DNA of 64,000 bases from an uncultured Gammaproteobacteria bacterium (GTDB lineage Bacteria > Patescibacteriota > Microgenomatia > Levybacterales > GWA1-39-11): contig CAZHDZ010000005.1 in assembly GCA_964531275.1 (NCBI GenBank), positions 12,545 through 76,544 of the forward strand, written 5' to 3'. Under the pieces are notes generated by a model that was given only the letters and a program-made list of their open reading frames with translations, was not told where the DNA came from and did no database searches. Below, one piece after another: positions 52,100-62,324 of the stretch. Both the position numbers and the translations under genes were made by a program. Within the stretch, counting starts at the first letter, position 1. Each line of letters begins with the position of its first letter.

Positions 52100-52735
52100 A
52101 TGTACCTTATGGCAACCGCAAAAAAAGGATTCCCACCCATTGTTATTGTTCTTATTGTCGTTGGTGTAATTGTTGTGGCAGTTGGGGGATTTTTCATGAT
52201 GAATAAGGACAAGATGGGAAGCATGATGAGTGGTAGTAATGCAGTGACCTCAATTAAAGATGCACTCACAAAATCAGTAAGTCTTGAATGCGAATATGTT
52301 GATGCTCAAAATGTAAAGTCCAAATACTACATTAAGAATGGTGCAATTCGCGCTGACATGGAATCTTCCGATCCAGAACAGACGGGAAGCATGATCATGA
52401 AAGATCGAAAGATATACTCATGGAAGGGCAAAGAAGGATTTATGATGGAGATTCCCGAAAGTAAAGACGAGGGAGACTCCATGAACAGCAAAGAATCAAA
52501 TGAGGCAGACAATCTCATAAAGGACCTTGAGGAATATAAAGACAAGTGTAAGCCTTCCGTCGTATCAGATAGTTTATTTACACCTCCAGCAGAAGTTGAG
52601 TTCCAAGACATGTCAAAAATGATGCAAGGAAGTGGAATGAGCGAAGATGAACTGAATAAAATGATGGAGCAGTATAAGGGCGGGGATTCTATGACAGGTG
52701 AAGAGCCTGTTACAGATTATTCAGAAGACTACTAA
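52100..52735 (+). CDS. Hypothetical membrane-anchored acidic protein
   Basis: N-terminal TM (FPPIVIVLIVVGVIVVAVGGFFMM). Met- and Glu/Asp-rich. Confidence 0.45.
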   Translation: MYLMATAKKGFPPIVIVLIVVGVIVVAVGGFFMMNKDKMGSMMSGSNAVTSIKDALTKSVSLECEYVDAQNVKSKYYIKNGAIRADMESSDPEQTGSMIMKDRKIYSWKGKEGFMMEIPESKDEGDSMNSKESNEADNLIKDLEEYKDKCKPSVVSDSLFTPPAEVEFQDMSKMMQGSGMSEDELNKMMEQYKGGDSMTGEEPVTDYSEDY

Positions 52736-52742
52736 TCTTCAC

Positions 52743-54668
52743 ATGGCCAAAAAGACCAATTTTAAATCCCCACGTAATGCCCATGTTGGCAAACTCATAA
52801 TTGCTCTTGCAATTGTTACTCTTATCCTCGGTGCTATTTCTGCTGCTTACTATGTAAATTTTTGGGAAAAGATCCCTTTCATAAGTCAAAAAATTCAAGT
52901 TACAAGGCCAAAAGCTGACATGAGCCGTGCTCGTCAGATGACCATTGACCCCTCGAAAGATTCAGTTGTGACAATAGTAAATCGAGAAGGCGTTAGAATT
53001 TCACTTCAAATTCCTAAAAACGCATTAAAAGAAAAAACTTTAGTTAAATTAATTCCTTTCTATAAAGACAAAAATACTTCAAACCCTACATCGGGTGTAA
53101 TAGTCAGTCCAGCAAAATTGAATTTCGCAAAACCAGTAACGCTGGCATTTAATTTTTCGGAAAGTCAGGAGAAAAATGGTGTTGATGTTGATGTTGAGAA
53201 GGACCTTCATATAACAAGTGCTTCGCAAGTCTTGCAAATAGATTCTGAAGCAACAACATTAACCCCCAATTTAATAGCACGTGGTCTCGAGAGTAAAAAT
53301 TATCTACCTGCAAGAATACTAACGGGAGGAGCGTATGTATTCGATACTACCGGAAAACACCAGGCAGATTATGCCAGGTTAGCTCTTAAATCCAATAATG
53401 CTCATTCATTAATTGTTATGGAAAGCGCTACCGTGCTTCTTTCTAAAGGTGAAGCTCTGAAAAAATCAGATCTTGCCAAGGCTAAAAATGCTATAGCAAA
53501 GATTCTTTCAAAAAAGTCGCCACCTCCATACGAACTATTTGCGGCTCTTGCGATCGATCAAAAGCTCAACAAGAAAGTATCATTGATTCCACAGGCATAC
53601 GCATACGAAACAGGGCAGGGCTATTTTGAGGCAGTTTGCAAAGAGGAGGGATTGAGCGCATCTGATTATTTGGGCTTTGCCAAAGGCGCTCAGCTTATGG
53701 GTTACGATTCAATAGGAGAAAATTGCATACAGAAAGCAAAAAATTTGGTTGCAGAAGAGGCCAAAAAAATTCTCGCTAACCCAAATTCAGATCTAAAGAC
53801 CGTTATCCTTGCTCTTCAAGACATTCAGATAGTTGGTCTTGATGATGATTCACAACTAGATGAAGCATTGATTGAACAAGCTCAGAAAATAACTGAAAAA
53901 GAGGGTGCTGAGACCTTAGATGATCCAAATGCAACTGCAATTGATGCCGCAAAAGCATTGCAAAAAATGGAGGGAATGGGTATAGAGGATGGAGAAGTTC
54001 ATAATGCTCTTCAAAAGAAAGTTAAGGATGCTGTAAATCTTGATCAGTACGACAATATGGAAGCACCTGAGGATGAAGCGACAAGTGGACCCGACGATGA
54101 TCCAATCGCTTTACCTGATGACTATGGAGATGGTGGGACATTTGATGAGGAGCAGATTTTAAGTAATGCTGTTTGGTCAGTTGTTGGAGTGGAGCTTTTG
54201 AAGGTAATGGGGTTTGAAGAGCTGGATGAGGCATCTCTAAAGAAGAGATTTGATGAAATGGCAGACGCCACAATAGAACTAGGAAATGCGGCCTATACCA
54301 TGTGTGTAGAGTTGGGGGGAGACAACTGTGAAGATATCCAACATGAATTAGACAAGGTAGAGCCCGCTAGGCAAGAGGGATACAGGGTTGCTGAGGATAT
54401 AGGGGAAGTTCAGTCAAGAGATTATGAAGTGCCAGAATACACCGAGGAAAGCGGAGAAGAATATTTAGATGGTCTCTACGTAGGCGAATTAACTCCCACT
54501 CCAGAAGAGGATGGCCAATATGAATACGAATACGGGGGGGATTCCAGTTATGATGCAACGGACGAGACCTATGAGGAATATGACAGCTCATATGATAGCT
54601 CTGCAGAAGAGACAACGGACCAGAGTTACAACGAAGAAAATAATGATAATTCTTATGAAGAAAATTAA
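52743..54668 (+). CDS. Hypothetical large membrane-anchored protein with extremely acidic Tyr/Glu/Asp/Ser-rich C-terminus
   Basis: TM (LIIALAIVTLILGAISAAYYV). C-terminus EYEYGGDSSYDATDETYEEYDSSYDSSAEETTDQSYNEENNDNSYEEN. Start set at the ATG at 52743 rather than the overlapping 52698. Confidence 0.5.
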   Translation: MAKKTNFKSPRNAHVGKLIIALAIVTLILGAISAAYYVNFWEKIPFISQKIQVTRPKADMSRARQMTIDPSKDSVVTIVNREGVRISLQIPKNALKEKTLVKLIPFYKDKNTSNPTSGVIVSPAKLNFAKPVTLAFNFSESQEKNGVDVDVEKDLHITSASQVLQIDSEATTLTPNLIARGLESKNYLPARILTGGAYVFDTTGKHQADYARLALKSNNAHSLIVMESATVLLSKGEALKKSDLAKAKNAIAKILSKKSPPPYELFAALAIDQKLNKKVSLIPQAYAYETGQGYFEAVCKEEGLSASDYLGFAKGAQLMGYDSIGENCIQKAKNLVAEEAKKILANPNSDLKTVILALQDIQIVGLDDDSQLDEALIEQAQKITEKEGAETLDDPNATAIDAAKALQKMEGMGIEDGEVHNALQKKVKDAVNLDQYDNMEAPEDEATSGPDDDPIALPDDYGDGGTFDEEQILSNAVWSVVGVELLKVMGFEELDEASLKKRFDEMADATIELGNAAYTMCVELGGDNCEDIQHELDKVEPARQEGYRVAEDIGEVQSRDYEVPEYTEESGEEYLDGLYVGELTPTPEEDGQYEYEYGGDSSYDATDETYEEYDSSYDSSAEETTDQSYNEENNDNSYEEN

Positions 54669-54690
54669 AGAAAAGGAGGTGAATTAATTT

Positions 54691-54999
54691 ATGGCAACAA
54701 CAGACGCACAACAGAATAAAACAATGGCGATTTTGGCTTACATCCTATTTTTCATTCCACTTTTGGCTGCACCGAAATCAACATTCGCTAAATATCATGC
54801 AAATCAAGGACTTATCCTTTTGATATTCGCAATAGCAGTACAGGTAATTGGAGGCGTAGTTCCTTTCTTGGGATGGTTCTTAGTACTCCCGATAGGAAAT
54901 ATCGCAGTCCTAGTATTCTTTGTAATGGGTATTATTAATGCTTCAAATGGAGCAATGAAACCCCTTCCACTAATTGGAGGATTTACATTGATTAAGTAG
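54691..54999 (+). CDS. DUF4870-like small membrane protein
   Basis: MAILAYILFFIPLLA..KSTFAKYHANQGLILLI..IAVQVIGGVVPFLGWFL... matches the DUF4870 pattern. SD aaggagg upstream. Confidence 0.55.
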   Translation: MATTDAQQNKTMAILAYILFFIPLLAAPKSTFAKYHANQGLILLIFAIAVQVIGGVVPFLGWFLVLPIGNIAVLVFFVMGIINASNGAMKPLPLIGGFTLIK

Positions 55000-55840
55000 A
55001 TTTCTTTTTCTGTTTTGGCTGTGGTTTGTTAATGGCATCCCCTTGGAATGCAAAAGAGGATGCGAAACAGACCACGCCAAATACACCAACCGCAAATGAG
55101 AATAATGTTTGGATTTCTCCTTGCCTTGCAATAAACAACATCGCAACCCGCTCAATAATAGGGAGTATGATAGCAACCATCCCGCTAGCATCTTTTGATA
55201 AAACTGTAAATAATCCAACAGAGGCAAATTGTGCAATGTGGAAAAGAATAAATCCACCTATCGCACTTAGTAGAAATGTAATTCCAACCCAGCGAAAACG
55301 GCTTTTATTATCAGGTGATCTTATAATTATAACAATAATGCTTAGAACCATAAGAATGCTTAGTGCTGGAAGAAGAATGGATACGATAGTATGACCAAGT
55401 CTAAGTCCTGCAAGGGCATCTCCCAAAGGGTACGAAAAATCATTTTCTTGAAGCGTTTTTATGAATTCCTGTGGGTTACCTTCTAGAGTGCTATTGCCAT
55501 CTGATGAATCGACCTCGCTTGGGATTTCTGAAAAGTCGTCAAATGATTCCTGAATGTCTGGGTTTTTGGCTAAGAATTCCTCTTTTATATCTTTAAAGGA
55601 AATTGTCGGTACGTTTTCGGTTTTGCCCGTTATCCAGTAGGCGGAATCATCAATGGCCCTATCAACTTTTCCCTTAATGTAGCCTGATGTAATAGGGGGA
55701 AAGTCTATTTTTTTATAGAGGCCGCTTTGTGACAACTCGTTTTTGATTGTGGTGGTAGATATACCGCCGTAGGAAATGGTTGCAAGGAGTATGACAAAAG
55801 GGGCTGTTGTTATAAAAAAGAGAAGGGCAAGGAGTCTCAT
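54992..55840 (-). CDS. Hypothetical integral membrane protein
   Basis: N-terminal TM, a central soluble region, and C-terminal TM helices. Confidence 0.45.
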   Translation of the reverse strand: MRLLALLFFITTAPFVILLATISYGGISTTTIKNELSQSGLYKKIDFPPITSGYIKGKVDRAIDDSAYWITGKTENVPTISFKDIKEEFLAKNPDIQESFDDFSEIPSEVDSSDGNSTLEGNPQEFIKTLQENDFSYPLGDALAGLRLGHTIVSILLPALSILMVLSIIVIIIRSPDNKSRFRWVGITFLLSAIGGFILFHIAQFASVGLFTVLSKDASGMVAIILPIIERVAMLFIARQGEIQTLFSFAVGVFGVVCFASSFAFQGDAINKPQPKQKKKST

Positions 55841-55843
55841 GGG

Positions 55844-56296
55844 TTAGACATATGTCCTTACATTTTGAATAATATCTTGAGGTGTAACATTTGATTTTAT
55901 GAGAAATGCGTTCGCATTTCCAAAAAGCTTTGTCTCTCGTATCGAGTCTATATCTCCTGCATTTGTTAATATAATTACAGGCAATTTTTCAAATCCAGGA
56001 AGCCCTCTTAGGGTTCTGAGCATAGTTTTGCCATCCATGACAGGCATCATGAGGTCCAACAGAATAATGTCGGGTCTTTGTGCTTGTGCTATTTCAAGTC
56101 CTTTTAGGCCGTTTTCTGCTGAAATAACCTCAAGCTGTTCTGCTTTTAGCACTTCTACATACAAATTGCGTAGGGCTTCATCGTCTTCCACGACAAGAAT
56201 CTTTTTCATTTTGGCAGCAGGTGGGGCGGCAGGAGACGTAGCAGGTGTCTCCTGAGGCTTATTTGATCCAAATCCAAGCTTATTTAATAGTCCCAT
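55844..56296 (-). CDS. Single-domain response regulator (REC only) with N-terminal Pro/Ala-rich extension
   Basis: KKILVVEDDEALRNLY...DIILLDLMMPVMDGKTML...IILT. Paralogue of 59268-59714. Confidence 0.8.
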   Translation of the reverse strand: MGLLNKLGFGSNKPQETPATSPAAPPAAKMKKILVVEDDEALRNLYVEVLKAEQLEVISAENGLKGLEIAQAQRPDIILLDLMMPVMDGKTMLRTLRGLPGFEKLPVIILTNAGDIDSIRETKLFGNANAFLIKSNVTPQDIIQNVRTYV

Positions 56297-56439
56297 ACCC
56301 CATATTACCTTTGTAAGAATTTTATGTCAATTTCATTGTATTTTGACCTTTTTATGATATGATTTGACAGCTTTTCTATCCCATAGCAATTTGCAGACTT
56401 GTTTTGCAATTTTTGCGTGCTATGGATATGGACAAAGCT

Positions 56440-57530
56440 GTTCTTTAAAAATCTGTTATTTTTCGGCGAGAGCAAATTGAGGTAAAAGATTGCCTGCGTT
56501 TGCGCTCGCCGGAAAGGATGAGCGGAAAGAAGGAGGTTGGGTTGACAAAAAAACCCTCACGTCGTCCTTGGCTTGCGCTCCTGGTTGCCGTGTTCATCGC
56601 GGCTACTGCAGGTGCAGGCCCGCTGGCAACCGCCAGCGCAGTACCGGTCAGTGACCCTAGGGTCACCCCTGGCTGTAACGGCCAGGATGACTTCGGGTTC
56701 GCATATACGGCGTTCGCGACAGGAGTAATTACCAACAAGGGCACGGCAACGTGCTCGGTATACTTCCTCGCGTACAACACGTACGATTGCGCGCCTATCA
56801 GCCAGTGTGGTAAGGGTCAAGATCTGGTCGGCACTGCCGGCCCCGTGACCCTGAAGCCGGGATCGTCTGTCACGCTAGTCGTGAACGTTCCTAACAGCGT
56901 GTGCAAGCTCCAATTCGATCCCCTCGTGGGATGGTTGGGAGCTCCACTCGGACACCTCGCAGGTGGTGCAGAGTATGGCACTGAAATGCTTGCACAAGGA
57001 GTCGGCATTACTGCTGACAATCCCAACTGCAGGCAGCCAACACCGACCCCGCCACCGCCAACACCTACGCCGGTTCTGACACCGTCGCCGACGGCAACGC
57101 CTACGTTGCCACCGCCGCCGACTCCGACGTCGCCTCCGCCTACCGCGACCCCATCGGCCACGCCGACGGGAACACAGTCGCCCACCGCGACACCATCGGC
57201 TACGCCGACTGGTACGCAGGTACCGCCCACGGCAACGCCTACGTTGCCACCGACCCAGGGTCCAACGACCCCACCGACGGCAACGCCGGTTGTAACTGCT
57301 CCACCGAGTAATGTTCCGAAGCCGCCGAGTGCGGGTACGGGCATGATCGAGTTGATGTCGACCCCTGTTGGGGCTGGCTTCCTACTCATGATGGTGGGTG
57401 CAATTGCCGCTGCGCTTACTATCGGTTTTGGCTTCGGCCAGGGACGTAGGTCCAAGAGGTAGCGTTCATCCAGGCAGATCTTTTCCGGCGCCCGTGGCTT
57501 CATAGCTGCGGGTGCCGGACCTTTTAACAA
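56440..57530 (+). other. High-GC island 1 (about 1.1 kb, visibly about 60-65% GC against a flanking genome near one-third GC) carrying one gene
   Basis: Abrupt composition change at about 56460-56490 and about 57525. All six frames are open in this stretch, a high-GC artefact. Confidence 0.8.
56500..57462 (+). CDS. Foreign-composition secreted protein: signal peptide, Cys-containing beta-sandwich-like domain, Pro/Thr-rich linker, C-terminal hydrophobic anchor + basic tail (GRRSKR)
   Basis: Signal peptide ...WLALLVAVFIAATAGAGPLATASA. PTPTPPPPTPTPVLTPSPTATPTLPPPP... linker. C-terminus GAGFLLMMVGAIAAALTIGFGFGQGRRSKR. High-GC codon usage. SD aaggagg. Confidence 0.6.
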   Translation: MRSPERMSGKKEVGLTKKPSRRPWLALLVAVFIAATAGAGPLATASAVPVSDPRVTPGCNGQDDFGFAYTAFATGVITNKGTATCSVYFLAYNTYDCAPISQCGKGQDLVGTAGPVTLKPGSSVTLVVNVPNSVCKLQFDPLVGWLGAPLGHLAGGAEYGTEMLAQGVGITADNPNCRQPTPTPPPPTPTPVLTPSPTATPTLPPPPTPTSPPPTATPSATPTGTQSPTATPSATPTGTQVPPTATPTLPPTQGPTTPPTATPVVTAPPSNVPKPPSAGTGMIELMSTPVGAGFLLMMVGAIAAALTIGFGFGQGRRSKR

Positions 57531-57977
57531 TTAGAAGACTTCAACTCGGGTTCCCATGGGAGCCCAGTCATAGACCCACTTAGCATCTTCAACTCGAAGA
57601 TTAACGCATCCATGGGAAGCACGTGATCCAAATTTATTGTGCCAGTAGGTACCATGAATTGCATATGCGCCTTTGAAGAACATTACATACGGAACATCCT
57701 TTAGAAAATAAGGCTCATACGGTGGGTAGTTACCTTTCATATTTTGCTTTTCGTTCTTGATGTAGATTTTAAAGCTCCCCTTTACGGTTGGGGTGTAACG
57801 CATTCCTGTTGAAACAGTAAATTCCTTCTGTATTCTTCCACCTTCCCACGCGTAAAGTCTTTGCTTTCCTATATCTACAGTAATGAGTTTGTCTGTAGTT
57901 AGAATGTCTGCGGCAAATGAAGATTTAGGGAATAGAAAGAATAGAAAAAGGAGAGTGGCTAATAAAATCTTTCTCAT
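57531..57977 (-). CDS. L,D-transpeptidase (YkuD domain)
   Basis: Signal peptide, then catalytic HGTYWHNKFGSRASHGCVNL (His...Cys). Confidence 0.85.
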   Translation of the reverse strand: MRKILLATLLFLFFLFPKSSFAADILTTDKLITVDIGKQRLYAWEGGRIQKEFTVSTGMRYTPTVKGSFKIYIKNEKQNMKGNYPPYEPYFLKDVPYVMFFKGAYAIHGTYWHNKFGSRASHGCVNLRVEDAKWVYDWAPMGTRVEVF

Positions 57978-58021
57978 ACAATCTACTATACAACATCTTT
58001 ATTTGAATCTATAATATCGGG

Positions 58022-58462
58022 ATGTTAAATGAAGAAGGAATTCCTCCACGTCAAGATCGTTTTATGTCAGTACTTGCTAGGGTAAGTGAAATGCCTGCGT
58101 GCAGTAACTCACTTGAAGCATATGGATTACTTTCGAGGGTTCTTAATAGTGCCGAAGACGAAATTTTTGGAGATCATTGGGAGCCTCCTCGTACTTTTCT
58201 TGATGGAAAAAGAACTCCAAGAATTTACCCAATACACCCTGAAAGCTTTCATCCTGTAGAAGGCTTTTCAGGCGTTACCCTAATGATTGCAAAGAAGGAA
58301 TACGTGATAGTGAGTAGATTTGGTGCAATGGAAGTGCAAACAAAAATTCCTGACGACCTTTATGGAGCTAATTTGCATTTCTCAGAAAGGAATGATCAAG
58401 TTCTCTGGCAAAAAACAGACGCTTACGGTGATGGTGTTTGGCATGATAAAAACAGAACGTAA
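58022..58462 (+). CDS. Hypothetical protein
   Basis: ORF only. Confidence 0.35.
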   Translation: MLNEEGIPPRQDRFMSVLARVSEMPACSNSLEAYGLLSRVLNSAEDEIFGDHWEPPRTFLDGKRTPRIYPIHPESFHPVEGFSGVTLMIAKKEYVIVSRFGAMEVQTKIPDDLYGANLHFSERNDQVLWQKTDAYGDGVWHDKNRT

Positions 58463-58501
58463 GTGGCAATTGGGTTAAATTAGTGGTATTATTCCCTTCA
58501 A

Positions 58502-59266
58502 ATGAACATTCAAGCAAATCTCCCAAAACTAATTGGCGTTGCGGTTGTTATTATCTTTATAATCGCGATTATCGCTTCATGTATTGCTGTAGTTGAAGCT
58601 GGAAATGTTGGGGTAATTACAAGATTTGGAGCTGTTAATAGAGTTGTGAATCCAGGATTAAATTTTAAACTTCCATTTATTGAGGGTATAACTCTTATGG
58701 AGACTCGTACGCAGAAAGAGCAAGTGGATGCACGAGCCGCATCAAAAGATCTTCAGGAAGTGCAAAGTACTATTGCACTTAATTTTCACTTGAGAGCAGA
58801 AAAAGCAGTCGTTGTGTATCAAAATATTGGGTCATTGTATAAAGAAAGAATTATCGACCCCGCAATCCAAGAGGCTTTTAAGGCTACAACGGCAAAATTT
58901 ACTGCAACAGAGCTTATTACAAAGAGAGAAGCTGTTAAGCAGGAGGCTTTGAAGCATTTAAAGGAAAGACTTAATGTCTTTAATGTAATAGTCGATGATT
59001 TTAATATTGTTAATTTTGATTTTTCATCTGATTTCAACCAATCAATCGAGCAAAAGCAGGTAGCTCAGCAAAATTATGAGCGTGCAAGAATCGAAGCAAC
59101 AACAGCTACGACACAAGCCCAGGGTCAGGCAGATGCACAGAAGATTCTAAGAGACAGTGGAAGTCTTACACCAGAATACTTACAATTTTTAGCTGTTCAG
59201 AAGTGGGACGGAAAATTACCAAGTGCTACCGCAGGAACTCCTTTTATAAATATTCCTACTCGGTAA
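58502..59266 (+). CDS. SPFH/band-7 (prohibitin/HflC-like) membrane protein
   Basis: N-terminal TM, SPFH core (RFGAVNRVVNPGLNFKLPFIEGI), and coiled-coil C-terminus. Confidence 0.8.
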   Translation: MNIQANLPKLIGVAVVIIFIIAIIASCIAVVEAGNVGVITRFGAVNRVVNPGLNFKLPFIEGITLMETRTQKEQVDARAASKDLQEVQSTIALNFHLRAEKAVVVYQNIGSLYKERIIDPAIQEAFKATTAKFTATELITKREAVKQEALKHLKERLNVFNVIVDDFNIVNFDFSSDFNQSIEQKQVAQQNYERARIEATTATTQAQGQADAQKILRDSGSLTPEYLQFLAVQKWDGKLPSATAGTPFINIPTR

Positions 59267-59267
59267 C

Positions 59268-59714
59268 TTACATCAGATCAAGAAGTGTTGCTATTGTCTG
59301 TTGAGGAGTAACATTTTCCTTTATCAAAAATCCTTTTGCCCCGTCATAGAGTTTTACCTGTCTTATAGTGTCGATATCACCTTTATCTGAAATTACAAGA
59401 ACGGGCGTAATTTTATACTCAGGAATGGCTCTTATATGATGAAGTAGTTCCTTGCCATCCATTACGGGAAGATTTAGATCTATTAAGATCATAGTTGGCT
59501 GAAAAGTTAGAAGCATATTGAGTGCTTCAGCACCATTTACAGCAGATCCAACCGTATACTTGTCTGTCGGCAAAAGTTGGATGTATTGTGCTTTTAATGC
59601 AGGATCAGCCTCAACAATAAGAATCTTTGGAAGATCAGATGCTATTGGTGTAGGAATTTTTCCTTCTCCTTCTTTGCCAGCTGCAAATATCATTAATTTA
59701 TCAAGTATCCCCAT
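59268..59714 (-). CDS. Single-domain response regulator (REC only), paralogue of 55844-56296
   Basis: PKILIVEADPALKAQY...MILIDLNLPVMDGKELL...VLVIS. Same MG(I/L)L(D/N)KL N-terminal extension as the paralogue. Confidence 0.8.
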   Translation of the reverse strand: MGILDKLMIFAAGKEGEGKIPTPIASDLPKILIVEADPALKAQYIQLLPTDKYTVGSAVNGAEALNMLLTFQPTMILIDLNLPVMDGKELLHHIRAIPEYKITPVLVISDKGDIDTIRQVKLYDGAKGFLIKENVTPQQTIATLLDLM

Positions 59715-59778
59715 GCCTTTATCGTAGAGCTAAGGTGGTCTTAATGTCAATTTAAATATGTTACAATTCTTGCAATAG

Positions 59779-60255
59779 ATGGTAGAGTTTTCCCTAGAAC
59801 TCGCAGCTGCCGTAGCTTATGAAGCCCATTTAGGGCAAGTAGATAAAGCCGGTGTAGAATACATCAATCATCCAATGGGAGTTATGGACCTAGTTCAGGG
59901 CCACGACACCAAGCTTCTGGCTATAATTCACGATGTTGTAGAAGATTCTCCTACAACTTTTGAAGATCTTTTAGAAATGGGGTGCCCCACGCATATAATT
60001 GATGCATTAAGACTTGTCACACATGAGCCTGATTTTGATGGGTCACATGCAGCATACTTTAGAAAGATACAAAAAATTGCTGGTTCTGGCAACCAGCTAG
60101 CAATCGATTTAAAATTTGCAGATCTTACCCACAATACAAATGTCACAAGAATAAATGGTAACCCTACAGAAAGAGACTATACCAGGTGGGCAAAGTATGA
60201 AATCTCAAAAGCTATTCTCCGCCCTCTTGTAAGTGGATATCTTCTTGAGATTTAA
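59779..60255 (+). CDS. Small alarmone hydrolase-like HD-domain protein ((p)ppGpp hydrolase, RelA/SpoT HD family)
   Basis: AYEAHLGQVDKAGVEYINHPMGV and AIIHDVVEDS match the RSH hydrolase motifs (HxGQ.R..G.PYI.HP, HDV.EDT). Confidence 0.7.
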   Translation: MVEFSLELAAAVAYEAHLGQVDKAGVEYINHPMGVMDLVQGHDTKLLAIIHDVVEDSPTTFEDLLEMGCPTHIIDALRLVTHEPDFDGSHAAYFRKIQKIAGSGNQLAIDLKFADLTHNTNVTRINGNPTERDYTRWAKYEISKAILRPLVSGYLLEI

Positions 60256-60329
60256 TAATTTAAGTTCAAAAGTTTTATATTAAAGTTTGAAAAACATCTT
60301 ATAGTATGTTATAATTTACAGCTTTTTGA

Positions 60330-61090
60330 ATTCATGCTCAATCCGTGTGATAGAGAAAAGCGTACATTTACAAGGAATCCATACAAGGCTTTCTCATTGG
60401 AGAGATATCGTCTCTGACGAGAAAGCCTTTGTATCCGATACTGACAAAGGTGGAGGAAGTTCATGCCAGAAAAGCGGTGTAGGCTGCTTATTGTGGGATG
60501 CGCTATTATAGCGATCATCCTTGCGACTATTGTCATGCAGGACTCACCTGCGGGGAATGAGAAAGAAGTTGATGTCGAAGACATCTACGCAACCCTCATC
60601 CCAGAACCACCACGCCAACTCACAGGTACGTACTGTGACCAGCTGCGCCAATATGTGCCGCAGGACGAAGCTGAAGCCATGAAATGGGCGGAAGCACTCA
60701 TTCGCGGCAACGCGAAGGGGCGCATCCTCATCATGAGGTTCATCTGCGGCAAAGACGACAAGGCCATTTATGGCTTTGCAATCCATCCCGGAGATGAGAT
60801 TGTAACCCTCATCCCCGCTCGCGGGGAAGTAATGGGTGCAACCGTCGAAATGACACTGCTTGACGGCTACGTCATATCCGGGACTACAACAAGAAGATCT
60901 AAGCCGGGCCAGAAGCCCGTGCCCGAGATTATTCTCGTCGCTGGCGGACCAGGCAAGGTCATCGGTACATCCTACGTTGTCAGCTTTCTGAGCGACGACA
61001 AATATCGGTAAGGATTTCATTGCTGCAAATGGGGTACCCTCAAGGGTGCGGCACTTCGGACTTTCCGAGGAAAACCCCACTTACTAAATT
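60330..61090 (+). other. High-GC island 2 (about 0.75 kb, visibly about 55% GC, clearly above flanking DNA near one-third GC) carrying one gene
   Basis: Composition shift relative to the flanks. A GC-rich hairpin (ttcggactttccgagg) follows the gene. Confidence 0.7.
60463..61011 (+). CDS. Foreign-composition hypothetical membrane-anchored protein
   Basis: N-terminal hydrophobic segment (LLIVGCAIIAIILATIVM; possible lipobox IVGC). Strong SD aaaggtggagg. High-GC codon usage. Confidence 0.5.
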   Translation: MPEKRCRLLIVGCAIIAIILATIVMQDSPAGNEKEVDVEDIYATLIPEPPRQLTGTYCDQLRQYVPQDEAEAMKWAEALIRGNAKGRILIMRFICGKDDKAIYGFAIHPGDEIVTLIPARGEVMGATVEMTLLDGYVISGTTTRRSKPGQKPVPEIILVAGGPGKVIGTSYVVSFLSDDKYR

Positions 61091-61124
61091 TCATTCACCT
61101 TTTGAATTCTGATACACTGTATAT

Positions 61125-61712
61125 ATGAATAAGTTGAAAATAGCTCTAATAATCCTTTTCCCTATCTTAGCAATAGGGGTGCTAGGGTTTTTCCTATCCT
61201 CTGCATTCAAACAAAAATACAACGATAGAGCAGTGATTGAAAAAATTAGGAATCTAAATCGTTGGGAAACAGCTTCTTATTCAATCGAAAAGATAATTGA
61301 TAAAGGGGAGAGTGGAAATGTCTTTCAAAGAGTTCTTTTTGGGAATAGAATTCTTCTAATTGCTCATGGGGAAGTCGTAGGCGGCTTTGATTTTGCAAAT
61401 CTAACTGAAGATAGTGTAAAAGTTGAAGGTAAATCAATTGTGATCAATTTCCCTCCTCCAGCAATACTTTCAACAAGCCTTAACGAATCCGAAACGCGTG
61501 TATATGATAGACAGCAAGGTCTTCTCGTAGGATCAGATAATAATTTAGAAAGCGATGCCAGAATCGAGGCTGTGAATGCAATACGAGCAGCTGCATGCAG
61601 TGGTGGGATACTTACAACTGCAGGTGAAAACGGACGAAAACAAATAACATCAATATTGACTGCATTTGGATTTGAAAAGATTACTGTCAACATCCCAGGT
61701 GGGAGTTGTTAG
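61125..61712 (+). CDS. DUF4230-like membrane-anchored protein
   Basis: N-terminal TM and ~180-aa extracytoplasmic domain. Pattern is reminiscent of DUF4230. Confidence 0.45.
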   Translation: MNKLKIALIILFPILAIGVLGFFLSSAFKQKYNDRAVIEKIRNLNRWETASYSIEKIIDKGESGNVFQRVLFGNRILLIAHGEVVGGFDFANLTEDSVKVEGKSIVINFPPPAILSTSLNESETRVYDRQQGLLVGSDNNLESDARIEAVNAIRAAACSGGILTTAGENGRKQITSILTAFGFEKITVNIPGGSC

Positions 61713-61715
61713 GGG

Positions 61716-62324
61716 TTAGGCTTCTTTTACGACTTTCTTCTTTGCCTTTGGCTTTTTAACTTCAACTTCTTCAGCCTGAACTTCTTCTAGAGGCATTTCT
61801 TCAGCTTCTACTTCTTCTGTAATAGCCTCAACATTTTTTTCTTTCTTAGGAGACTTTGGAGTAGGAGCGAGTAGCTCTAAAATTTTATCTAACTTTGCGT
61901 TTATATCATTAAGTGCTTGTGAGCTTTGGTTTGTTGTGCTTCTCGGATCTCCGCCTTTTGCCTCAAAACAATTGCTGCAAAGGGTTTCTTTACCTTCTCG
62001 TGGGGCGAATGGCACGCGGCATTTATTTCCACAGTTATCACAGGTAGCATCAAACATCGGTCGATCTTGGGAGCTTCTGCCTCTATCTCCTCTATCTCTT
62101 GAGAAATTGCTTCTTCCTCCATCGCGGGAATCCTGTGGTGAATTTTTCTTAAAACAATCTCTGCAGTAGACAGGTCTACCATTAGAAGGTCTAAATGGAA
62201 TTTCACATGATTTTCCGCAATCTGCGCAAGTCGCCTTGAACATTTCTCGGTCACCACCAAAGCCACCTCTATCATTGTAGCTGGTACGTCCTCTTGAATT
62301 GTTATCTCGTCCGAAATTTCCCAT
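61716..62324 (-). CDS. Basic protein with two CxxC-x17-CxxC zinc-ribbon units, RG/RS-rich linker and Lys-rich C-terminus (putative nucleic-acid-binding)
   Basis: FKATCADCGKSCEIPFRPSNGRPVYCRDCF and FDATCDNCGNKCRVPFAPREGKETLCSNCF; GDRGRSSQDR; ...KKPKAKKKVVKEA. Confidence 0.5.
   Translation of the reverse strand: MGNFGRDNNSRGRTSYNDRGGFGGDREMFKATCADCGKSCEIPFRPSNGRPVYCRDCFKKNSPQDSRDGGRSNFSRDRGDRGRSSQDRPMFDATCDNCGNKCRVPFAPREGKETLCSNCFEAKGGDPRSTTNQSSQALNDINAKLDKILELLAPTPKSPKKEKNVEAITEEVEAEEMPLEEVQAEEVEVKKPKAKKKVVKEA

Follow-up and report, generated by a model that had tools for sequence, protein, structure and literature searches.

Horizontal transfer of single genes and small islands into Patescibacteria is documented, often with a donor that was not recovered, and most of the transfers in that survey took place between Patescibacteria, with identifiable partners (PMC12455944). 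Here we describe a locus of this kind in a 64-kb window (the whole stretch of DNA analysed, 64,000 nucleotides of contig CAZHDZ010000005.1), in which a preliminary description had pointed to two single-gene islands of high GC content. The second of them, island 2, is like the surveyed islands (PMC12455944) in that its one gene, anomalous in composition and missing from close relatives, lies in a streamlined low-GC genome with no adjoining mobility gene and no recovered donor. It stands between a gene for a small HD-domain protein of the RelA/SpoT hydrolase type and a DUF4230 gene. Our main conclusion, to which we assign a probability of roughly two in three, is that about 850 bp were gained in the lineage of the window alone, within a 19-nt spacer between these two genes. 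The insertion and its flanks are as follows.

59779–60255, + strand: left flank, gene for a small HD-domain protein (158 residues) of RelA/SpoT hydrolase type (the NCBIfam model of the SpoT/RelA hydrolase region matches at E = 4.8e-9, easily passing its curated cut-off; the Pfam HD_4 match is weak)
60256–61105, + strand: the entire lineage-specific insertion, about 850 bp, delimited by the alignment break against the L004 group and L014
61110–61712, + strand: right flank, TGATACACT (extended −10-like) and the 195-residue DUF4230 gene with its ATG at 61125 (Pfam DUF4230, E = 3.7e-31), conserved in L004, L014 and L017

Comparator loci came from two sources. A genome scan with the neighbouring HflX protein recovered L004 (CAZEEU010000002.1), a contig of the closest public metagenome-assembled genome (MAG), which is collinear with the window at about 74–85% nucleotide identity and has an HflX that is 92% identical. 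The genomic context of DUF4230 homologues yielded further contigs: L009/L010, L012, L015 and L017, which form a sister group with L004, and L014, a third lineage that is 79% identical to the window and 77% identical to L004. The three lineages are approximately equidistant, with pairwise nucleotide identities of 79%, 80% and 77%. Gene order differs in three more distant loci (L011, L013 and L016), which are uninformative on polarity. The title of the L004 record, 'uncultured Gammaproteobacteria bacterium', is probably a taxonomic mislabel: its genes have farther homologues assigned to Levyibacteriota or Patescibacteria. The DUF4230 protein has homologues assigned to Levyibacteriota ('Candidatus Levyibacteriota', 64% identical) and to Patescibacteria (49% identical). 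The window itself probably stems from a bacterium of the Patescibacteria/CPR near Levybacteria, although this placement is weak.

The site is empty in both of the other lineages. Across L004, L009, L012, L015, L017 and L014, the stop codon of the HD gene is followed by a spacer of 19 nt and then by the start codon of DUF4230, the sequence after the stop reading ATTCTG(A/C)TACACT(A/G)TA(T/C/G)A(T/G)ATG. BLAST alignments leap from window position 60254/60255, after the TAA, to 61101/61106, with the sequence conserved up to the break. That TAA (60253–60255) is the final triplet shared with the empty site; in L004, L014 and L017 alike, the HD gene can be aligned as far as 60254/60255. Placement of the boundary is ambiguous by up to 5 nt, as TTTAA on the left resembles TTTGA on the right. 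Absence from the orthologous site of close relatives, a first mark of an acquired islet, is thus seen in the L004 group and in L014 alike, each with the compact 19-nt junction.

A second mark, deviant composition and codon usage, is seen in the GC content at third codon positions (GC3) and in the relative synonymous codon usage (RSCU) of island 2. The window has a mean GC of 0.399 (s.d. 0.056 in 200-nt windows), while 300-nt windows at 60400–61000 reach 0.51–0.55 between sides of 0.32–0.43; the segment with at least 50% GC spans 60431–61100, and GC across about 60400–61100 is 0.51–0.56. The single open reading frame (ORF) of the island, at 60463–61011, has a GC3 of 0.59, compared with a median of 0.305 (s.d. 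0.062) over the 68 ORFs of the window, and GC3 exceeds 0.40 only in the two island ORFs (island 1, 0.61; island 2, 0.59). Two further regions of about 50% GC, at 7.1–8.7 kb and 15.4–17.7 kb, owe it to codon positions 1 and 2, with native GC3 (0.36 and 0.23). RSCU of the island 2 ORF is uncorrelated with that of native genes (r = −0.01), and the dinucleotide distance delta* to native DNA is 0.13, within the native 95% range, the short length making this measure uninformative. The compositional deviation of island 2 is real, and the description of the segment as a compositional island holding one ORF is borne out. High GC by itself is no proof of recent transfer, because island 1 is a high-GC gene stably resident in the clade.

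These comparisons are most economically read as a gain in the lineage of the window, given that two lineages have the very same compact junction and that the composition of the extra DNA is alien. The gene could instead be ancestral, the compact junction of the sisters having arisen by deletion; the comparison involves just three roughly equidistant lineages whose tree is unsettled, and gene-sized indels occur nearby. Such a history, however, could yield the same exact 19-nt junction twice only through a pair of precise and identical deletions or on a specific tree, the GC3 and ribosome-binding signals of the segment are non-native, and no homologue was found in other relatives (123 DUF4230-linked clusters) or in protein databases. 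We consider an ancestral gene very improbable.

Island 2 might also be an assembly chimera, or contamination joined into the contig, as an abrupt GC shift and an orphan gene are both classic signs of such an artifact. Nonetheless, three Logan contigs, each assembled from a different sequencing run (SRR12762304, ERR8482638 or ERR8482639), encode the exact ORF product. Their alignments to the window, 4538, 3443 and 1510 bp long, show 100% identity and all extend across both junctions, in line with the junction check that had been proposed for the island. The protein index also assigns the ORF to an NCBI contig of 100,583 bp, presumably the record of the window itself. All three contigs that have the exact HD-protein allele of the window carry the insert, and an empty-site variant is not found among contigs with that allele. 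Because three independent read-set assemblies reproduce both junctions, an assembly chimera is effectively excluded, and we give the artifact almost no credence. It had been suggested that unrelated compositional signatures of the two islands, combined with missing read support, would indicate chimeras; the signatures do prove unrelated (see below), but read support is good, so the conclusion does not follow.

Outside its ORF, the insert has the following parts.

60256–60323, + strand: AT-rich 5′ segment of 68 nt with 17.6% GC, host-like in composition (GC by part)
60287–60315, + strand: sigma-70-like promoter, TTGAAA-17 nt-TATAAT with TG before the −10 box, directed into the island ORF (consensus match)
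60324–60333, + strand: direct repeat copy 1, TTTTGAATTC, at the AT-rich/GC-rich transition (repeat search)
60334–60462, + strand: 5′ leader of 129 nt with 42.6% GC, containing a hairpin (60382–60433) and a Shine–Dalgarno (SD) sequence (60446–60456)
61012–61099, + strand: 3′ tail of 88 nt with 48.9% GC and two short hairpins, 61021–61053 and 61054–61070 (fold z −1.4)
61100–61109, + strand: direct repeat copy 2, TTTTGAATTC, across the right junction, its last 4 nt (ATTC) being conserved flank (repeat search)

The direct repeat bears on how the DNA was fixed. TTTTGAATTC agrees at 8 of 10 positions with the empty-site sequence ATTTAAATTC, which in the comparators takes the form ATTTA(A/G)ATTC. It occurs four times in the 64 kb, compared with 0.93 expected, and 46 of 3000 block-wise dinucleotide shuffles (p about 0.015) have a 10-mer that touches the right junction and is found again upstream; repeats of 10–12 nt also arise by chance in this region (repeat family D2). 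We take the pair as decent but not overwhelming evidence for target duplication or for recombination at a short shared core. One mechanism that would accommodate it is a small non-autonomous mobile cassette, formed by the GC-rich 766-bp unit and one repeat copy, that targets TTTRRATTC-like sites with a 10-bp duplication. The AT-rich 68-nt piece would then derive from a separate earlier event at the same target, and the whole would be compatible with a lineage-specific gain. The repeat is perfect, lies exactly at the composition boundaries and overlaps the right junction defined by the comparators, and further degenerate copies of the target motif occur at 60250–60267.

Against a cassette, the ends of the unit have no terminal inverted repeats, and there is no second copy of any part of the insert in the window, the fetched loci or the databases. 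There is also no single long imperfect palindrome of the attC type, and repeats of this length are, as noted, also found here by chance. Mobility functions, a further mark of acquired islets, are likewise missing: Pfam annotation, which was limited to the syntenic neighbourhood, shows no transposase, integrase or recombinase there, and the window has no tRNA or other Rfam match that could have served as a target. We regard the cassette mechanism as distinctly unlikely. The AT-rich segment has no second copy in the window or in the fetched loci, and its origin as a duplicate of the HD 3′ end was rejected (local alignment p 0.12).

The promoter-like site in the AT-rich segment is the highest scoring within 55800–61800 (11 of 12 positions, TG-extended), with a predicted transcription start near 60322. 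Downstream, the leader hairpin at 60382–60433 (inverted repeat I1) comprises about 23 pairs, interrupted by an internal mismatch and by a bulge; the leader RNA folds at −40.5 kcal/mol (z −2.4; 4 of 200 shuffles are equally good), and no Rfam family matches the insert at gathering score, nor at E up to 5 within 60256–61110. The SD sequence aaaggtggagg, noticed earlier, is indeed present at 60446–60456, and its GGAGG ends 6 nt upstream of the ATG. A 27-codon ORF at 60334–60417 (MLNPCDREKRTFTRNPYKAFSLERYRL) has its ATG directly after the first TTTTGAATTC, 18 nt downstream of the −10 box, and terminates within the leader hairpin; it may encode a leader peptide or be open by chance.

At the other end, the GC-rich terminator-like hairpin that had been reported after the ORF did not hold up. 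A Rho-independent terminator has a GC-rich hairpin directly before a U-tract, which is found at island 1 and is lacking at island 2: its two short hairpins fold no better than shuffled sequence (z −1.4) and are followed by AAAACCCCACTTAC with no T-run, and a terminator scan returned no site between 61011 and 61125. The 3′ tail is probably a poor terminator.

The ORF and the features of its product are listed next.

60463–61011, + strand: orphan ORF of 182 residues, ATG start, GC 0.534, GC3 0.59, predicted to encode an N-in/C-out single-pass membrane protein (ORF list, codon-position GC, coding frame)
60484–60537, + strand: transmembrane signal-anchor helix, residues 8–25, LLIVGCAIIAIILATIVM (hydropathy and AlphaFold2 helix)
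60655–60690, + strand: Sel1-like repeat core motif, residues 65–76, VPQDEAEAMKWA (phmmer match to P0002 and repeat profile)

Homologues are all but absent from the collections searched. A word-indexed search of 5.8e9 clustered proteins returned only the self-match, and a full HMMER/phmmer search over 1.84e9 representatives added one marginal match, P0002 (E = 8.8e-4 library-wide), so the homology search proposed for this ORF yielded itself and a Sel1-motif match. P0002 is an 848-residue Sel1 and WD40 protein, and the similarity is essentially a 12-residue Sel1 core, VPQDEAEAMKWA. A profile built from eight Sel1 repeats of P0002 matches residues 65–76 with a domain score of 17.6 bits (whole sequence, 18.4), compared with a maximum of 5.6 bits in 2000 shuffles, and covers only positions 18–29 of the 36-position repeat. 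Pfam, including Sel1 (PF08238), does not match the ORF even at E up to 10, and NCBIfam, PHROGs, PADLOC and PDB sequences gave no match; a Sel1-like repeat protein would pass the Pfam gathering score with tandem 36–44-residue repeats, neither of which is seen here. The insert DNA had no match in phage and plasmid collections (distant mode), and back-translated scans of JGI metagenome contigs and IMG/VR viral contigs revealed no relatives of the ORF. As a specific donor P0002 was rejected: in tblastx and blastn comparisons, Sel1 motifs are all that the insert has in common with the P0002 contig (GC 0.55). An identifiable donor or homologue elsewhere, another mark of acquired islets, is therefore missing beyond a self-match and one motif-level match, and because nothing of the kind was found anywhere searched, the case for foreign origin rests on composition and absence from relatives.

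The product looks like an N-terminally anchored single-pass membrane protein with its N-terminus inside. K4, R5 and R7 precede 18 hydrophobic residues, the Kyte–Doolittle maximum over 19 residues is 2.74 at residues 8–26 with no second segment above 1.4, and a single-sequence AlphaFold2 (AF2) model places a helix at residues 4–26. These are the features of a type II signal anchor, namely an N-terminal hydrophobic helix of about 18–20 residues with positive charges on its N side and no cleavage motif; together with the GC3 of 0.59, they agree with the preliminary description of a membrane-protein gene of foreign composition. A possible lipobox, IVGC, had also been proposed. A lipobox has the form [LVI][ASTVI][GAS]C, with a preceding h-region of at least 7 residues and the Cys near the end of the hydrophobic stretch. 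The motif exists at residues 10–13 but lies inside the helix, with only L8–V11 (4–5 hydrophobic residues) before the Cys and 12 after it; a lipoprotein was rejected on this geometry, which by general signal-peptide rules argues for an uncleaved signal anchor. AF2 models of the full-length protein and of the ectodomain have a predicted local distance difference test (pLDDT) of 46 each, and both show two helices followed by about 8 strands.

Whether the ORF is a working gene is a separate matter. The insert could be captured junk, its ORF being a remnant of a foreign gene (for example, of the Sel1-repeat/beta-propeller type) or a chance frame that serves no function. The ORF is a singleton outside any family, the match is confined to the 12-residue Sel1 core with the remainder of the repeat degenerate, a weak 28%-identity alignment extends past that core into the first WD40 blade of P0002, the AF2 model is of low confidence, and an equally long antisense ORF is present (60544–61080, 178 residues), the mirror frame of the island 2 ORF. 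That antisense frame has a lower coding score, however: among six frames scored with a mid-GC codon table, the + frame of 60463–61011 is highest, is rich in purines and poor in T at first codon positions in the manner of real genes, and stays stop-free for 182 codons at 53% GC. The segment also has a complete expression set (promoter, SD at the ideal 6-nt spacing, ATG and a basic-then-hydrophobic signal anchor) that is not expected in a random fragment. On balance, we judge captured junk unlikely.

Native genes appear to use other signals. At least 5 of 6 matches to AGGAGG are found at 4 of 68 ORF starts, two of the four being the island genes, and a TATAAT-like box ends 4–10 nt before the start codon at 18 of 68; both counts use the uncurated starts of the longest ORFs, some of which are possibly wrong. 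They suggest that leaderless initiation is widespread in the host and that most native genes are SD-less. DUF4230 itself has TGATACACT (61110–61118) 6 nt before its ATG, conserved in the sisters and intact after the insertion, so that its own putative leaderless promoter would be undisturbed. The insertion has placed a second, strong putative promoter 0.8 kb upstream of DUF4230, with no convincing terminator between them. Elsewhere in the window, a 656-residue ORF (52698–54668) with an extremely acidic C-terminal tail rich in Asp, Glu, Tyr and Ser lies directly upstream of 54691–54999, a MamF_MmsF-like gene that is among the few native ones preceded by a perfect SD; L004 is unaligned over 52868–54669, where L017 aligns.

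Taken together, we propose the following course of events, in which each step is put forward conditionally. DNA of a donor that is not among the sampled genomes and has a higher GC (about 55% or more) would have been taken up and fixed in the spacer between the HD and DUF4230 genes by illegitimate or microhomology-guided recombination, or alternatively as a small non-autonomous element that duplicated its target. Transcription would start from the host-type promoter at 60287–60315 and give an mRNA leader of about 140 nt, and translation would proceed via the strong SD, a mode apparently unused by most native genes. The product would be a type II (N-in, C-out) membrane-anchored protein with an external part of about 155 residues, comprising one Sel1-like helical motif and then about 8 beta strands, most plausibly a surface module for protein–protein interaction. 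Because a convincing terminator is lacking after the island 2 ORF, transcription probably continues into DUF4230, which would also retain its own promoter.

Several points weigh against this interpretation. The phylogeny of the three lineages is unsettled, so that the choice between one gain and two losses relies on parsimony and composition, and island 1 demonstrates that a high-GC gene can reside stably in this clade. A high-GC donor does not account for the AT-rich promoter segment inside the insert, and neither donor nor homologue was found in any collection searched (proteins, phage, plasmid, metagenome and viral). A single sequence of the ORF is known, and as a functional gene it is putative; the predicted fold comes from low-confidence AF2 models (pLDDT 46), and the SD statistics depend on longest-ORF starts that may be wrong for some genes. 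We nevertheless favour a lineage-specific gain. It would be a clean, well-bounded acquisition of one gene by a streamlined candidate-phyla-radiation (CPR) genome, with both junctions, the empty site and read-set support in hand. It would indicate that foreign DNA can be fixed in a 19-nt intergenic gap while leaving the putative promoter of the neighbour undisturbed, and that the newcomer bears leadered, SD-dependent signals in a genome that appears mostly SD-less or leaderless. A further conjecture is that the product, should it be a surface protein, may aid lineage-specific recognition of a host or partner.

Island 1 presents the more puzzling biology, its GC being steady at 0.62 across diverged lineages. 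Its ORF lies at 56542–57462 (GC 0.62) and the island ends near 57530, in agreement with the spacing of about 2.8 kb to island 2 given earlier. Homologues are confined to five protein clusters (P0124–P0127 are among the family), and the gene stands beside the first of two REC-only regulator genes, REC1, at the same position in every related lineage examined that covers the site: L004 (16242–17216, − strand), L017/L018 (L017, 8001–8942) and L019 (2075–3040). Across these lineages it has a GC of 0.61–0.62 and a GC3 of 0.61–0.63 within low-GC contigs. Its protein identity between lineages is 47–66%, compared with about 91–92% for the neighbouring DUF4230 and HflX. On these alignments, island 1 is an old, fast-evolving resident gene and not a recent insertion, and its high GC appears to be maintained in a 39%-GC genome rather than decaying.

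These data divide the earlier proposals on the pair of islands. Two independent insertions had been suggested, which stands for island 2, given the empty site in the sisters, and fails for island 1, which is syntenic in all relatives covering its site. The two REC-only proteins are paralogues, as stated (41% identity), and REC1 does abut island 1, but the HD gene separates REC2 from island 2, so that only one island sits directly beside a REC gene. Acquisition from the same donor finds no backing in codon preference, with NCG codons and CGT/AGG in island 1, NNC codons in island 2 and an RSCU correlation between them of −0.14, which is weak evidence given that both ORFs are short. There is no sequence similarity between the two islands.

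Further features of island 1 and its surroundings were observed. Its strong intrinsic terminator (57484–57519; −34 kcal/mol, z −4.5) consists of a GC-rich stem of 16 bp and then CCUUUU; it lies back-to-back with a convergent YkuD gene, whose stop codon it abuts in the window. The aligned proteins (alignment A3) have a signal peptide, six invariant Cys, a Pro/Thr-rich stalk, an invariant PPS[AS]GTG, a transmembrane segment and a basic tail, and the C-terminus resembles a sorting signal of the sortase type whose motif is non-canonical; NCBIfam and Pfam models gave no match. P0124 is apparently mosaic, with a window-like N-domain and a stalk identical to that of P0127, which suggests recombination between island 1 alleles. 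In the intergenic region between REC1 and island 1 (56297–56541), the leader is more conserved across lineages than the ORF; a long hairpin at about 56459–56517, just before the SD, shows one compensatory and several one-sided pair changes among four sequences, and is a candidate cis-regulatory element with no Rfam match. Relative to window positions 57463–58500, the sisters (L017 8943–11525, and L004) have two extra genes, a 202-residue ORF between island 1 and YkuD and, between YkuD and the ORF that follows it, one for a hydrolase of the HAD family; neither is present in the window. Gene content of this 6-kb neighbourhood thus differs between lineages, possibly reflecting local plasticity of the kind that a hotspot for foreign DNA, as suggested earlier, would involve.

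It is tempting to see islands 1 and 2 as members of one distinct class of high-GC, SD-led, single-gene surface-protein units in this CPR clade. Their composition would be actively maintained or repeatedly re-imported (for example, from the host of an episymbiont) and their targets would be TTTRRATTC-like, with no recombinase linked to them; within the class, island 2 would have arrived recently and island 1 would be an old member that evolves fast and recombines. Island 2 is like the island 1 family in being a high-GC, SD-led single gene with a structured leader, in the same low-GC neighbourhood, with a secreted or anchored product. In contrast to island 2, island 1 is syntenic in all relatives covering its site and has a strong terminator, another codon preference and another architecture. 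We consider a common class quite improbable.

Among mobile elements, island 2 is like insertion sequences (ISs), miniature inverted-repeat transposable elements (MITEs) and integron cassettes in being a small (0.77 kb), single-ORF unit bracketed by a target-derived 10-bp direct repeat, and the target-site duplication typical of ISs and MITEs is represented by TTTTGAATTC at 60324 and 61100. Unlike these elements, it has no terminal inverted repeats, no transposase in the annotated neighbourhood and no multiple copies, and a MITE was rejected because inverted repeats are missing and the unit is single-copy. An integron cassette was also rejected: in place of an attC-like palindrome there are two separate short hairpins (z −1.4; the GTTRRRY core was checked by eye), the ORF has its own upstream promoter and, unlike at integrons, no integrase occurs in the annotated neighbourhood.

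At the protein level, island 2 resembles Sel1-like repeat (SLR) proteins (PF08238) at residues 65–76, which reproduce the repeat core GV.QD..EA.KW within a predicted helix-turn-helix. SLR proteins have several tandem repeats of 36–44 residues and pass Pfam, whereas island 2 has at most one degenerate repeat, no Pfam match and a remainder predicted to be beta. It is closer to prokaryotic ORFans, being short, lineage-restricted, off-host in composition and devoid of homologues in the largest protein collections. Many ORFans are AT-rich or phage-associated; island 2, by contrast, has a higher GC content than its host and gave no match in PHROGs, the phage collection or viral contigs.

The islands described for Patescibacteria (PMC12455944) differ from island 2 in three respects: homologues of its gene are entirely lacking, its composition suggests a source beyond the clade and it carries a host-like AT-rich promoter together with target-like direct repeats. 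With these differences, island 2 fits, on sequence comparison, the acquisition of an ORFan within the described category of horizontal gene transfer, and is a real but fairly ordinary acquisition of one orphan gene.

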